64,000 bases of DNA from Rickettsiales bacterium (GTDB lineage: Bacteria; Pseudomonadota; Alphaproteobacteria; Rickettsiales; JABCZZ01), in contig DASTXE010000003.1 in NCBI GenBank assembly GCA_035765535.1, positions 388,516 through 452,515 on the forward strand, in the 5' to 3' direction. The stretch's first letter is position 1, and each line of letters opens with the position of its first letter. Positions 24,318 to 28,241 of this stretch are shown one piece after another. Made by a program: the position numbers and the translations under genes. The notes under the pieces were generated by a model. The model had not been told where the DNA came from and did not search any database. It was given only the letters and a program-made list of their open reading frames with translations.

Positions 24318-27300
24318 TTATCTCCCGGCATTCCATCCGGTGTTAGCGTAAGTATGGTTCCTGTTCAGGGCGTTTTGCAAGGCAGTCGGGCTTCCGGGCA
24401 TGACCACATCCGGTTTTAGCTGGCCCTGTGTAAGGGCGTGCACATCGTCAATCTGCTGGAGCAGGGCTTCCCGGTCGTCGCCGCGCGTCACTTCGAGCAT
24501 CTTTTCCAGATTGCGGGCGTATATTTCCAGAAAAAGCGGGAAATTGTTTCTTGCATCACACTCCGTCAGTTTTAGATGGTCTTCAAAAGCCAGCGCGAAC
24601 AGCTCCGGTTTGGTTTGTGCCGCCAGCAGTTCCGCCTTGGATGTATTGATATCGACATCCGCGGCATGTCTGTGCCCCAGTTCGGAGAAGAAATCAATAA
24701 AGGTCTGGGCGATCAGGTTGTCGAGCCGTTCCCCCACATGGGCCCTGTATTCCTCAAGGGAAGTCAGGTTCATGGAACGAATGAACTCGTTGATCGTGGC
24801 ATTGATCACGGGATACATCGTCAATGCCTGAGGATTATCGGATGCCAGGTTCTCACCTTGCCCGAGACTATTGATATTCTGGTGATAGAGATATTCATAT
24901 GCGCAGACGCGCTGGAAATCATCGCTCACGCTTGGAACGGAACCGCCGTCGAGACCGTAAGACTGTTTCACGGTTTCGACATAACTCCTTTGCCGGTCAG
25001 GAGGATGCGCGGTAACGCGCTTGGGGGTGCCGACCGTGCCGGTGACCACGCCGCTGATCATCCTGTCGCCGTGACGATGCAGCCAGAAATCGAACACGCG
25101 GCGGATGTCGTTTGCGCCCCTCACATTAAACTCGCCTTCTATCAGGCCGGGCTGCGTGGCCTGCTGGTAGCCCATGAGCGCGGCCAGTTTATCGTCCGTC
25201 TCACGCTGTACCATTTGCCGTGCGTCATAGAAGTCCGTACCGATGCCGATCACATTCGCCTGATAAGCCTTGTCCACCTGTGCTGCACGGGAATAATGCT
25301 CGGCGATGCTGTCCTTCACGTGTTCTTCCACCATTTCATGCAATGCGAGTCGGGCAGGATCGGTCGTCCCCGGCGTGGCGGCGTTTGACGTAGCGATGAT
25401 AATGCTGAGATCATTGGAATCAGCATAGCCGAGGCAGAAATGGGTCAGTGCCTGCGCAGTCCTGCCATCGAACGCGCCGATGAGATCTTCCAATGTAGCG
25501 ATGCCGTGCTGCTGGCTGATGCGTTCGAGGTTTCTGCTGTTGCGCTGGCCGACATCCAATATGTCTTTTGCTAGGTAAGCTTTGCGAACGGATTCGAGCT
25601 TTTGCGCCGTGCCGTATTTCTCCTGATAGTCGCGGGATTCCAGCAATTTATCGATTTCCTGCTCTATCTGGGAGATTTGTTTTTCCAGGGCGCTCTCAGA
25701 TACTATCTGGGAGCGATACCCCGCAGCGCGTTCTCCCATTCGAGTCGTTTCAACATCGTGTCCTGCTTTTTCAATCCTGTTTTGAGCACGGGCATTAGCA
25801 AGTGTTACCAAACCAGCGACGATAGAATTATTGCCTCCCCCTCCTATAGGAGGAGGAAGAAATTTTAATGCAATACCGCCTAAAATTTGTCCTGTAGCGA
25901 TGCGTCTTGATGTCTGCGTTCGTATCGTACTTTTTGTAGCCAGTGATCGTTCTTTTGTTTCAATATCCCATGCAATGGCAGCAGCTTTTTCTCTTAAAGC
26001 AGTATTGTCCTTTCGAGCCTTATCCAGAGTGCTGCCAGTGGTCTGTTTTGCATCCTGCGCATCTGAAGTCTGCGAAAGAATTTCAGCAATACGTTCTCTG
26101 GTACCATCAAAAATACCCTCAAACTCCGTCACCTGTGTATCCACCATGGAACTTGCGCGTGCAAGGCGCTCGCGAATACCGCCGGCATTGGCATCATGCA
26201 GGAATGAAAGGTCGAGTTCATTTGTTGCCTGTGCCACGGTGGCGGCAAGGGCAGGGTTATCCGGCGCGGCGGAGAAAGTCGCGATTCCGGCTTCCAGCAT
26301 GGGCTGTTGGCCGAAACGGGCGATGTTGGGAAAATCCTCCGAGCGCACCTGCGACAAGTCTTCGCTCTTCATTGCCTGGATCAGGAAATAGTCCAGATGC
26401 GGAATCATGGAGTGATTGACGAACTGCCGCAGCGCTGTCTGAAACGGTTCCTGGCCGGTGCCATCGCTGAGAGCCAGCAGCGTGTCGATATCCCGCAACG
26501 TATAATCCCCTCCCACAAGTCGTCCGAAAGTCTCCGCCGTCCCCGTATTGTCAGCACCGATCTGCTGCTGCATTGTATCCAGCGTCAGGCCGTTATGAGT
26601 TGCATACTCGGTGAGGTCACACACCACATTGTCATTACTGGCCTTACGCACCACCAGCGCTTCCGCCCGCTGTATCTCCGCTTCACGGCGGGTGAGAGTT
26701 GTTTGGATATCGTCTGCATCCCTACCCGCAAGATACAGAATTACCCTCATCTGCTTTTTACAGACAACAATATCACCACTGGTAAGTGTATCGGGGTGAG
26801 AGCGGATCTTATTAATCATATCCACGAAGACTGCTTTATTCGCCGCACAATAGTCGTAAAGTCGTGTCAGGCTGGATATTGTCTCCATATTAGGAGACTC
26901 AACAAAGCTAGGATCAATACGTGAATAGCCATACTCGCTTAGGGTGGGGTGGCTGCTGTCAATGATGGCCTGCTCAAGTGTTCTTGCATCCGCAGGAGAG
27001 AATAAAAGCTTTCCCGGGGCCCCAATTCCGCCATATTTGAAATCGTCATCAATCCTGAGGCTCACTAAAGAGCGGTTAACTCTTAGTCCTGCTGCTAATT
27101 CAGATATAATAGGTGAAATTTCCCAAGAATTCTGTCCATACGAGTTTACAATATCCAGGCTGCATAATCCCTGATTAGCTTCAAGCATTTCTCGCAATGC
27201 CCTTGCTCCAGACGCTCCGATGCAATTTGGAGTGCTGCTATGGTCTCTGAAACGAAAGGCTTCGCTTCCAGCATGAAGACGCCGAAGACTAGTATTGCTT

Positions 27301-28241
27301 TCTAGGCCTTGTGCAATAGCACTGATTCCCTGGTCACGGACACTGTTATCTTCTACAGTCAATATTTGTAGAGCACTATCTGGCAATGCTCCTCCAATAG
27401 TAGTAGCCCCCCTATCACCTAGATTGCAGCGATTTAGGTTCATATAGCTAATTGTATTGTTGTTCCTTAATATCTGCGCTATTGCCTGAACATCCGGCGG
27501 TGCCAAATTATTATCCCTCAGTTCAACATCGGTAAGATAACCATTCTTTTCAATCCCGGTTGCTAAATTTGCAAGTCCGCCACCAGAAAGATGAGCATCC
27601 GTTACTGCAAGACGTGTCAAAGTTTTATTTCTACCTAATGCTGCTGCGAAACTGCTCACATTGGTTGCGGCATTATGATGTCCATCATTGTTAGGGCTAT
27701 GTAGGGAGAGACGTGAAATAGTACTATTGTGTTCTATAATATCTGCGACGGTAGTATAGAACGACTCACTTCCAGATGCTTTAGCTAACTCGAACCACTC
27801 TAAAGAACGATTTTGTTTGATACTATCGGACAATGTTTCCAGACTTGCATCGTCAATAGATATTTCGCCTTTAGAATTGTCATTAAAGAACAATTCCTTA
27901 AGTCTCTTGCTGTTCTTTATATATTCAGAGAGAGCAGGAAGGCTCTCTGGAGGCAACTGATTCCATATGGATAGCCGCTTTACTGCAGGATCTTTTTGAG
28001 CCAAGGCGGAAAAAAGCTCTGTTAACTCCTCAGGCGCCAGCACCCCCCGTTCAATGCTTAGTTCGTCAACAGAAGGAACCTTAACAATTTCTTGTACAAG
28101 TTCCGCGAAAGCTGCAGCCCTCTCTCCAGTACGTACAATCGGTTCGTTTCCACCAAAAGGTGTTACGGTAAAGCTAAGATCCTTAGGAGGATTAGCGCTC
28201 CTTAATTGTTCTGTCAGACGAACGATATCTTCAGTCTTCAT
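24318..28241 (-). CDS. Large (1307-aa) protein: N-terminal RNI-type leucine-rich repeats plus ~850-aa region of unknown function
   Basis: Residues ~90-400 carry about ten 28-29-aa repeats of the form L..L.L..N.IgD.GA..IA.aL..N..L (for example NNTISYMNLNRCNLGDRGATTIGGAL and NTSLRRLHAG). I see no signal peptide. The C-terminal part has coiled coils and one G/P-rich hydrophobic hairpin. Confidence 0.85.
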   Translation of the reverse strand: MKTEDIVRLTEQLRSANPPKDLSFTVTPFGGNEPIVRTGERAAAFAELVQEIVKVPSVDELSIERGVLAPEELTELFSALAQKDPAVKRLSIWNQLPPESLPALSEYIKNSKRLKELFFNDNSKGEISIDDASLETLSDSIKQNRSLEWFELAKASGSESFYTTVADIIEHNSTISRLSLHSPNNDGHHNAATNVSSFAAALGRNKTLTRLAVTDAHLSGGGLANLATGIEKNGYLTDVELRDNNLAPPDVQAIAQILRNNNTISYMNLNRCNLGDRGATTIGGALPDSALQILTVEDNSVRDQGISAIAQGLESNTSLRRLHAGSEAFRFRDHSSTPNCIGASGARALREMLEANQGLCSLDIVNSYGQNSWEISPIISELAAGLRVNRSLVSLRIDDDFKYGGIGAPGKLLFSPADARTLEQAIIDSSHPTLSEYGYSRIDPSFVESPNMETISSLTRLYDYCAANKAVFVDMINKIRSHPDTLTSGDIVVCKKQMRVILYLAGRDADDIQTTLTRREAEIQRAEALVVRKASNDNVVCDLTEYATHNGLTLDTMQQQIGADNTGTAETFGRLVGGDYTLRDIDTLLALSDGTGQEPFQTALRQFVNHSMIPHLDYFLIQAMKSEDLSQVRSEDFPNIARFGQQPMLEAGIATFSAAPDNPALAATVAQATNELDLSFLHDANAGGIRERLARASSMVDTQVTEFEGIFDGTRERIAEILSQTSDAQDAKQTTGSTLDKARKDNTALREKAAAIAWDIETKERSLATKSTIRTQTSRRIATGQILGGIALKFLPPPIGGGGNNSIVAGLVTLANARAQNRIEKAGHDVETTRMGERAAGYRSQIVSESALEKQISQIEQEIDKLLESRDYQEKYGTAQKLESVRKAYLAKDILDVGQRNSRNLERISQQHGIATLEDLIGAFDGRTAQALTHFCLGYADSNDLSIIIATSNAATPGTTDPARLALHEMVEEHVKDSIAEHYSRAAQVDKAYQANVIGIGTDFYDARQMVQRETDDKLAALMGYQQATQPGLIEGEFNVRGANDIRRVFDFWLHRHGDRMISGVVTGTVGTPKRVTAHPPDRQRSYVETVKQSYGLDGGSVPSVSDDFQRVCAYEYLYHQNINSLGQGENLASDNPQALTMYPVINATINEFIRSMNLTSLEEYRAHVGERLDNLIAQTFIDFFSELGHRHAADVDINTSKAELLAAQTKPELFALAFEDHLKLTECDARNNFPLFLEIYARNLEKMLEVTRGDDREALLQQIDDVHALTQGQLKPDVVMPGSPTALQNALNRNHTYANTGWNAGR

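Follow-up and report, generated by a model that had tools for sequence, protein, structure and literature searches.

The 64-kb window analysed here (the whole stretch of 64,000 nucleotides from contig DASTXE010000003.1, part of a metagenome-assembled genome (MAG) labelled 'Rickettsiales bacterium' at NCBI) carries on its minus strand a gene for a 1307-residue protein, in which leucine-rich repeats (LRRs) of the ribonuclease-inhibitor (RI) type precede a C-terminal region of about 850 residues. An alpha-2-macroglobulin (A2M) gene and a PBP1C gene lie downstream of it and a divergent AhpC/TSA-Redoxin gene lies upstream, the neighbours that had been described in an earlier annotation made without database searches (hereafter the sequence-only reading). 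That annotation proposed the protein as a candidate secreted effector with an unknown C-terminus. What we find is larger, namely a protein family not described before, whose fold is probably new, together with a mobile cassette of two genes; the protein in the window is an LRR-capped member that lacks the partner. The features discussed below are collected in Table 1.

The open reading frame (ORF) proved to be intact as claimed, and the same 1307-residue protein was called independently, with identical sequence, on a 33-kb Logan contig (L001). The NCBI annotation of the MAG (VFT64_04950) gives a protein of only 915 residues that starts at an internal GTG codon (Val393), and because of this start the whole LRR domain is lost from the public annotation. 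Codons 1–392 (27065–28241) are missing from VFT64_04950 though the 1307-codon frame is open, and the part omitted is the part of the gene with low GC content at third codon positions (GC3). GC3 is 0.28–0.37 over residues 1–400, 0.60–0.67 over residues 501–700, 0.27 over residues 701–800, 0.49 over residues 801–900 and 0.62–0.72 over residues 901–1307; most neighbouring genes have values of 0.55–0.65, and the target is thus a mosaic and partly atypical, a pattern that may have arisen by recombination between family alleles. The N-terminus is hydrophilic, and the highest Kyte-Doolittle mean over 19 residues (KD19) anywhere in the protein is 1.14. Since no stretch exceeds this value, the protein has neither a signal peptide, as had been noted, nor a bona fide transmembrane (TM) helix.

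Table 1. Features of the target gene and its flanks, in window positions (residues are those of the 1307-residue protein).
Feature	Position	Strand	Basis and remarks
Complete coding sequence, 1307 residues plus stop codon	24318..28241	-	ATG start
RI/NLR-type LRR domain, residues 56-430	26952..28076	-	PDB phmmer, Pfam LRR_6, repeat register; GC3 0.28-0.37
Linker and helical domain, residues 431-688	26178..26951	-	AlphaFold; modelled helical domain ~509-626
Outward stalk helix, residues 689-783 (95 residues)	25893..26177	-	Helix 219-313 of the AlphaFold model (add 470 for the residue number)
Stalk tip, residues 784-807, GQILGGIALKFLPPPIGGGGNNSI	25821..25892	-	pLDDT <50, modelled as disordered; Gly-rich, mildly hydrophobic
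Stalk return arm, residues 808-911, four helices	25509..25820	-	AlphaFold
C-terminal all-alpha globular domain, residues 912-1307	24321..25508	-	AlphaFold model of residues 880-1307, pLDDT 89.6, pTM 0.90
Arg1056-His1057 of the 'HRHG' motif	25071..25076	-	The same His in all 47 full-length members
Cys1113 of the 'F-x-R-x-C-x-Y-E-Y' motif	24903..24905	-	Conserved in 94%; one member has Ser and two more are truncated
Downstream A2M (2044 residues) and PBP1C (711 residues) pair	15954..24225	-	Flank conserved in related MAG locus L005
92-bp gap between target and A2M, same strand	24226..24317	-	No terminator-like site
AT-rich divergent intergenic region, 211 bp	28242..28452		37% GC; shared with AhpC/TSA-Redoxin gene

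The C-terminal family and its predicted fold

A word-indexed search of 5.8 billion proteins returned the target only, as would an orphan C-terminus, and this picture was overturned when HMMER was run exhaustively on 1.84 billion cluster representatives: 72 clusters are homologous to the C-terminal region, three quarters of them (54 of 72) at E≤1e-30, with E-values down to 1e-173. The word-indexed search overlooked a cluster 57% identical over 470 residues that the exhaustive search recovered; failure to find a homologue in the former alone does not amount to orphan status. Most family clusters are 950–1300 residues long and align to target residues ~510–1307 at 27–37% identity. The nearest relative overall (L023/P0080) is 45% identical over target residues 461–1303, so that homology begins at residue ~461 for this relative and at ~510 for most members. 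None of these searches matched the region to a known housekeeping family: no known domain was found in the C-terminal 850 residues in Pfam (searched with the target and 47 members), NCBIfam, PHROGs or PADLOC, and a profile search of PDB sequences with the C-terminal family gave coiled-coil noise only. Thus the C-terminus is unknown in that no recognised family covers it, but it is not an orphan; as judged by sequence comparison, its ~850 residues form the conserved core that unites a protein family not described before.

Conservation was counted in an alignment of the 47 full-length members. His1057 is invariant in all 47, and Gly938, Ala940, Asp944, Lys976, Asp990, Phe1050, Arg1056, Gly1058, Pro1103, Phe1109, Cys1113, Tyr1117, Phe1185 and Gly1189 are at least 90% conserved, which makes about 15 near-invariant residues, several of them polar. 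The family motifs are G-x-A-D-S-N-D, E-x3-K-P, H-R-H-G, F-x-R-x-C-x-Y-E-Y, N-P-E-A-P and L-D-N-L-I-A-Q-x-F-x-D-F-F-x-x-L-G, and the target retains the first four together with L-D-N-L-I-A-Q-x-F-x-D-F-F of the last. The statement that the protein has no catalytic motif therefore holds for known motifs only. The C-terminal domain might be catalytic, to judge from its invariant His and from the Cys, Asp, Lys and Arg that are nearly so, although the same residues could equally be metal-binding or structural.

We modelled residues 471–1307 and 880–1307 with AlphaFold2, using the family alignment. The longer model (m87c3dcfcdb67) has a predicted local distance difference test score (pLDDT) of 82.2 and a predicted TM-score (pTM) of 0.78; the scores of the shorter one are given in Table 1. 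The modelled region is entirely alpha-helical and includes a 95-residue helix, so the long coiled-coil stretches that had been seen by eye were borne out. This outward stalk helix, ~140 Å long by our estimate (at ~1.5 Å per residue), has block-mean pLDDT values of 78–97 that drop to 61 at its tip-proximal end. The return arm leads to a compact globular core (residues ~917–1293, mostly at pLDDT >90), which is the most conserved part of the family. Foldseek comparison of the whole model with PDB, and of the globular domain with PDB and BFVD, gave no match at E≤0.001; the best E-values were 0.3–0.7 and the TM-scores of the globular-domain model were below 0.2. Structure prediction of the C-terminal region thus yields a confident all-alpha model that matches no fold in PDB or BFVD, and the globular domain probably has a new fold. 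A long antiparallel coiled-coil hairpin attached to a globular domain is also found in hydrolase regulators of the EnvC/PcsB/RipA type and in enterococcal PrgA, and these were the top or listed whole-model Foldseek matches; at E-values of 0.4–3.4, however, the matches are non-significant noise, and proteins of these kinds are exported by Sec and contain catalytic or CAP domains that are known. A ClyA/colicin-type pore former was also ruled out, as PaxB and SmhA matched only at E ~1–2 with TM-scores of ~0.1, and the lack of a strongly hydrophobic helix pair in the target's globular domain counts against it as well.

The sequence-only reading had singled out a short hydrophobic hairpin split by PPPIGGGG (residues 786–815, nucleotides 25797–25886) as a re-entrant membrane-insertion element. 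Its core is the stalk tip of our model: because AlphaFold places the loop between the two stalk arms, the hairpin is predicted to be the tip of a long antiparallel coiled-coil stalk. A true pair of TM helices was ruled out, since KD19 is at most 1.14 and the segment is too short and too weakly hydrophobic. What does stand is that the hairpin is a special, Gly-rich element, for tips of a Gly/Ala-rich and mildly hydrophobic kind recur within the family. In the target the tip has a Kyte-Doolittle mean over 15 residues (KD15) of 1.47, the maximum of the whole protein, and is made of two lobes of ~12 residues each. Across the family it is 16–67 residues long and varies in sequence without conservation, but it is consistently rich in Gly, Ala, Ser and Thr (25–65%); KD15 ranges from 0.55 to 2.39, and in 19 of the 47 members it contains the most hydrophobic 15-mer of the entire protein. 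TM segments of membrane effectors from secretion systems of types III and IV (T3SS and T4SS) characteristically lie just below the threshold for inner-membrane targeting (PMC6110835; review PMC12981334), and by this analogy the moderately hydrophobic tip is consistent with a putative re-entrant membrane element. SseF/SseG, chlamydial Inc proteins and T4SS 'TMEs' resemble it in having a two-lobed, moderately hydrophobic, Gly/Ala-rich element that is flanked by coiled coil and is less hydrophobic than typical inner-membrane TM segments (PMC6110835; PMC12981334), and a single family member, P0088, has a weak precomputed Pfam match to SseF_SseG. In contrast to those proteins, the target has lobes of only ~12 residues and no linked secretion system or chaperone, and the family proteins are 3–5 times larger and have a conserved globular domain.

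RI-type repeats and exchangeable N-terminal modules

The LRR class had been assigned correctly. About ten repeats of 28–29 residues had been counted; our register gives 11–12 degenerate repeats of 27–40 residues each, from residue 56 to ~430 and clearest at residues 207–317. A phmmer search of PDB sequences matched more than 60 RI-type LRR chains over target residues ~112–367, with best E-values of 4e-15 for LRRC34, 2e-9 for ribonuclease inhibitor and 1.7e-7 for NLRP3. Profile support for this assignment is marginal, since Pfam LRR_6 gave 23.3 bits against a gathering score of 23.4, a borderline result 0.1 bit under the threshold. The N-terminal ~375 residues thus have significant matches to RI/NLR LRR proteins (RNH1, NLRP3, LRRC34; LRR_6) and share their class of 28–29-residue repeats, but the target repeats are degenerate and are fused to a bacterial module that is found in no eukaryotic LRR protein.

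The LRR region of the target is closest to that of another family member, a 1498-residue protein from an 'uncultured Azospirillum' MAG (L004_1498; 26% identity over 457 residues, E 3e-21), which itself matches LRR_6 at 1e-18. The best matches outside the family are eukaryotic RNI-like proteins (Citrus, Rotaria) at 23–30% identity. Because the closest LRR belongs to another family member and the eukaryotic matches are so distant, a recent transfer of the LRR from a eukaryote to a bacterium is unlikely. Within the family LRR_6 was matched in 5 of the 47 members (best E 9.8e-21), and the nearest relative, L023, keeps only ~2–3 RI-like repeats. Subfamily A4 has a Sel1-like N-terminal consensus, with one member only reaching Pfam Sel1 significance, and many of the non-LRR members have a second Gly/Ala-rich hydrophobic hairpin at residues ~95–145, flanked by coiled coil. 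By this comparison of N-termini, family members swap modules (RI-LRR, Sel1 or a second hydrophobic hairpin), and the LRR, which had been taken for a eukaryote-like feature, is one of several interchangeable modules.

The logic resembles that of the IpaH/SspH/SlrP effectors, which also lack a Sec signal and join an N-terminal LRR binder to an all-alpha output domain at the C-terminus, where a conserved Cys is found. The target differs from these in that its LRRs are RI-type repeats of 27–40 residues and not LPX repeats of 20–22, and in that a 220-residue coiled-coil stalk separates the two modules. A NEL E3 ligase was ruled out, as there was no Pfam NEL match at E≤1 and no Foldseek PDB match at E≤0.001.

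The repeats were one ground on which the protein had been read as an effector of an intracellular or amoeba-associated bacterium, delivered into a eukaryotic host whose proteins its LRRs would imitate and one of whose membranes its hairpin would enter. RI-type LRRs and Sel1 are classic 'eukaryotic-like' effector domains, the best non-family LRR matches are eukaryotic, the P0088 match to SseF_SseG points the same way, the window MAG and the L005 MAG are both labelled 'Rickettsiales bacterium' at NCBI, and basal Rickettsiales with extracellular lifestyles carry an rvh T4SS (PMC11077975). The genes of the window, however, are unlike those of a reduced intracellular genome. They encode glycosyltransferases, shikimate enzymes, an RND pump, two TonB receptors, a PQQ dehydrogenase and polysaccharide lyases, as well as several sensor kinases or two-component systems. 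These genes, and the presence of a complete Planctomicrobium genome among the carriers, leave the inference of an intracellular lifestyle without support. Other members come from Chitinophagales and Hyphomicrobiaceae genomes or MAGs, and pattern-based, non-exhaustive scans of genome collections found no member in Legionellales, Chlamydiae or classical Rickettsiales. Given also that the closest LRR is a family member's, we consider this eukaryote-host version unlikely; it is a narrower form, with less support, of the exported-protein model that is set out below.

Mobile-element context, the partner gene and possible function

Alignment-based scans of genome collections placed the family in about 10 genomes, whereas a scan of GTDB representative genomes with the target protein alone gave no close relatives. 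The carriers are Planctomicrobium sp. SH668 (a complete chromosome), one Chitinophagales MAG and, among Alphaproteobacteria, several MAGs that are labelled Rickettsiales, Azospirillum or Hyphomicrobiaceae or left unclassified; one Hyphomicrobiaceae MAG (L006/L007) has two family fragments that are ~93% identical.

Many family genes are cargo of integrative, mobilisable or conjugative elements. Tyrosine integrases lie near the family gene in L002, L015, L016-18 and L033, the last of which also has a Prim-Pol with a D5-type primase; L021 and L022 have a serine recombinase and two ParB/RepB genes, with or without two RadC genes; and toxin-antitoxin and restriction genes are found near some loci, with AAA_13 genes also present in the islands. 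On the P0088 contig the cassette has on one side a relaxase gene of the MobA/MobL type (1001 residues), accompanied by TraC, TraD and VbhA-Fic, and on the other a fragment of a coupling-protein gene. In L034 a relaxase gene and one for a TraG/TrwB-type coupling protein are 2.3 kb away, and the replicon also has RPA and ParA. In L005 (12748–13557) and L033 (13365–14042) the gene right after the family gene is a PEBP (PF01161) gene, with LysR nearby in both; this shared flank may be a common island attachment region.

A second gene accompanies the family gene. In 12–13 of the about 20 loci with enough flank it is adjoined by a partner gene of 480–565 codons, usually divergently transcribed, whose product has no database match. 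A partner profile recovers the partner genes at E-values from 1e-20 to 1e-196, and most partners end in two hydrophobic segments (KD19 1.3–2.3) with a charged linker between them. Two tandem partner copies are present in L003 (6244–9346), and in L031 (3–1382 and 2287–5439) a second family-like ORF is divergent from the first. The pairing is reminiscent of the laterally transferred two-gene module cREM-5/cREM-5p on Rickettsia pRF and RAGE elements (PMC11077975), which likewise joins an effector candidate to an adjacent partner and has spread laterally into recombination hotspots, plasmids and conjugative transposons. A cREM-5 reading was rejected, since neither the C-terminal domain nor P0088 gave a tblastn match in PLSDB, a collection that includes pRF (CP000054.1).

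We tentatively favour the explanation that the target is an adaptor-plus-output protein that is borne by mobile elements, works at a membrane and leaves the cell without Sec, a conjugative-type T4SS being the most plausible route. The LRR domain would serve as an adaptor that binds a protein target, the stalk tip might dip into the bilayer as a monotopic hairpin, and the conserved C-terminal domain would supply a His/Cys-dependent activity; any export by this route could be into a bacterial or a eukaryotic cell. A secreted effector is a plausible, if putative, description of the protein, and the sole positive hints of secretion are the mobile-element contexts, including the two beside a relaxase and a T4SS coupling protein. 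The mosaic GC3 of the gene and its fast turnover also speak for the favoured explanation: between L005, a related MAG locus with the same A2M–PBP1C flank, and the window, A2M is 58% and PBP1C 57% identical, and the family proteins only 28%.

A number of observations weigh against this explanation. In the 64-kb window we found neither a secretion system nor a chaperone nor any recognised secretion signal, an hmmsearch of its six-frame translations with the partner profile found no partner gene, and its gene content looks free-living or facultative, unlike that of a reduced obligate intracellular genome; one of the carriers, moreover, is the complete Planctomicrobium genome. The family is absent from 72,556 PLSDB plasmids, 50,697 phage records (INPHARED) and IMG/VR. 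In the proteins themselves, the C-terminal tails are no more than mildly basic (their last 30 residues have a net charge of +1.25 on average), some tips are non-hydrophobic (KD15 0.55–0.7), each hydrophobic lobe of the target is, at a KD15 of 1.47, only ~12 residues long, and no catalytic activity can be named for the C-terminal domain.

Nearly as likely as export, though itself doubtful, is a resident function: the protein would be a conflict module that mobile elements carry and do not export (for defence, anti-defence, exclusion or addiction), and it and its two-TM partner would be at the inner membrane of the producer, with the LRR or Sel1 module sensing an invader or competitor protein and the C-terminal domain or the partner executing the response. 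A variable 'sensor' and a conserved 'output' are typical of conflict systems. The reading is also favoured by islands with toxin-antitoxin, restriction-modification, RadC, ParB and AAA_13 genes, by a patchy spread across phyla, and by divergence faster than that of the flanking genes in L005. The target's lack of a signal peptide and the two C-terminal hydrophobic helices of the partner fit a resident protein, and so does the free-living appearance of the carriers. On the other hand, PADLOC had no match to the family or the partner (the best hit, at E 0.05, covered 40 residues of one partner and was to a '2TM effector' model), a switch domain such as an NTPase is absent, and known plasmids and phages yielded no family member. 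The window copy, too, has lost its partner and yet kept a full-length ORF. A STAND or bacterial NLR-like protein was ruled out specifically, because no NACHT/NB-ARC-type NTPase was found in Pfam or NCBIfam and there was no PADLOC match. LRR sensors are unusual among known bacterial defence proteins, which also counts against a conflict module.

The exported-protein model can be extended into a more speculative one, which taken as a whole is rather unlikely. The family and its partner would form a new two-gene system borne by integrative and conjugative elements, in which a T4SS delivers a hairpin-anchored enzyme of new fold that is retargeted by swapping its RI-LRR or Sel1 adaptor; the two-TM partner would be a receptor, chaperone or immunity factor, and the gene in the window would be an LRR-retargeted, partner-less chromosomal derivative. 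If such a model holds, a new, structurally unprecedented output domain with plug-in 'eukaryote-like' adaptors is on the move among environmental Alphaproteobacteria, Planctomycetota and Bacteroidota, carried by their conjugative and integrative elements. This would bear on the cargo of conjugative T4SSs besides relaxases and Fic toxins, and on the assembly of effectors by domain swapping before host dependence; effector assembly ahead of a host-dependent lifestyle is actively discussed for basal Rickettsiales (PMC9352585, PMC11077975). The cultured carrier Planctomicrobium sp. SH668 makes experiments feasible.

The window copy and its surroundings

Comparison with L005 places the target at a particular kind of site. 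In L005 a family gene occupies the same position, keeps its partner and has two integrase N-terminal fragments just upstream; two other genes stand between it and A2M. Synteny between the two loci ends at the family gene. Because the family gene at this place in L005 is only distantly similar and synteny stops, the site is an island border that holds different alleles. The sequence-only reading had the gene inserted between the A2M operon and a thioredoxin-like gene; the flanks are as it described, but an insertion unique to this genome is not supported, as L005 has a family gene at the same place. No mobile-element genes were found anywhere in the 64-kb window, and the window copy is a partner-less chromosomal orphan at a decayed island border beside A2M–PBP1C.

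The upstream region is AT-rich, as had been noted, and a scan of it (28242–28452) found no minus-strand consensus promoter. The gene had also been called monocistronic, for which we find no support: a terminator scan of the 92-bp gap before A2M found no minus-strand terminator-like site, so that the gene may be co-transcribed with A2M. It could then be argued that the protein has a cell-envelope or housekeeping role and is co-expressed with the periplasmic defence pair A2M–PBP1C, or else that it is a decaying island remnant without current function. The shared strand, the short gap without a predicted terminator and the conservation of the A2M–PBP1C adjacency in L005 would fit such readings, as would the loss of the partner and of all element genes from the window and the survival of nothing but integrase fragments in L005. 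A2M and PBP1C act in the periplasm, however, and the target has no signal peptide; apart from L005, the family gene is not beside A2M in the other loci examined, and even in L005 two genes intervene. A pseudogene is disfavoured because the 3.9-kb ORF is intact and near-invariant positions, including His1057 and Cys1113, are kept. We therefore regard an envelope role or a functionless remnant as distinctly improbable.

The 5' half of the target belongs to a stretch of low GC content (0.40–0.48; ~27000–32000) that also contains the spacer, small ORFs and genes for a Flp pilin, a LigT-like 2'-5' RNA ligase and CreA; four of the small ORFs (29110–29505, 29549–30022, 31583–31969 and 32074–32490) have no Pfam match. 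This stretch looks like a variable island with no remaining recombinase. A 619-codon ORF without a Pfam match (47873–49732, minus strand; GC3 0.49) lies between the RND efflux operon and a TonB-dependent receptor gene. On the plus strand, a 1230-codon open frame (20548–24240) runs antisense within A2M and is read as a shadow ORF. A polysaccharide lyase gene is present at 39134–39877, and a second low-GC patch (57486–59471; GC3 0.38–0.42) encodes an alginate lyase and a protein with an N-terminal methylation motif of the pseudopilin type.

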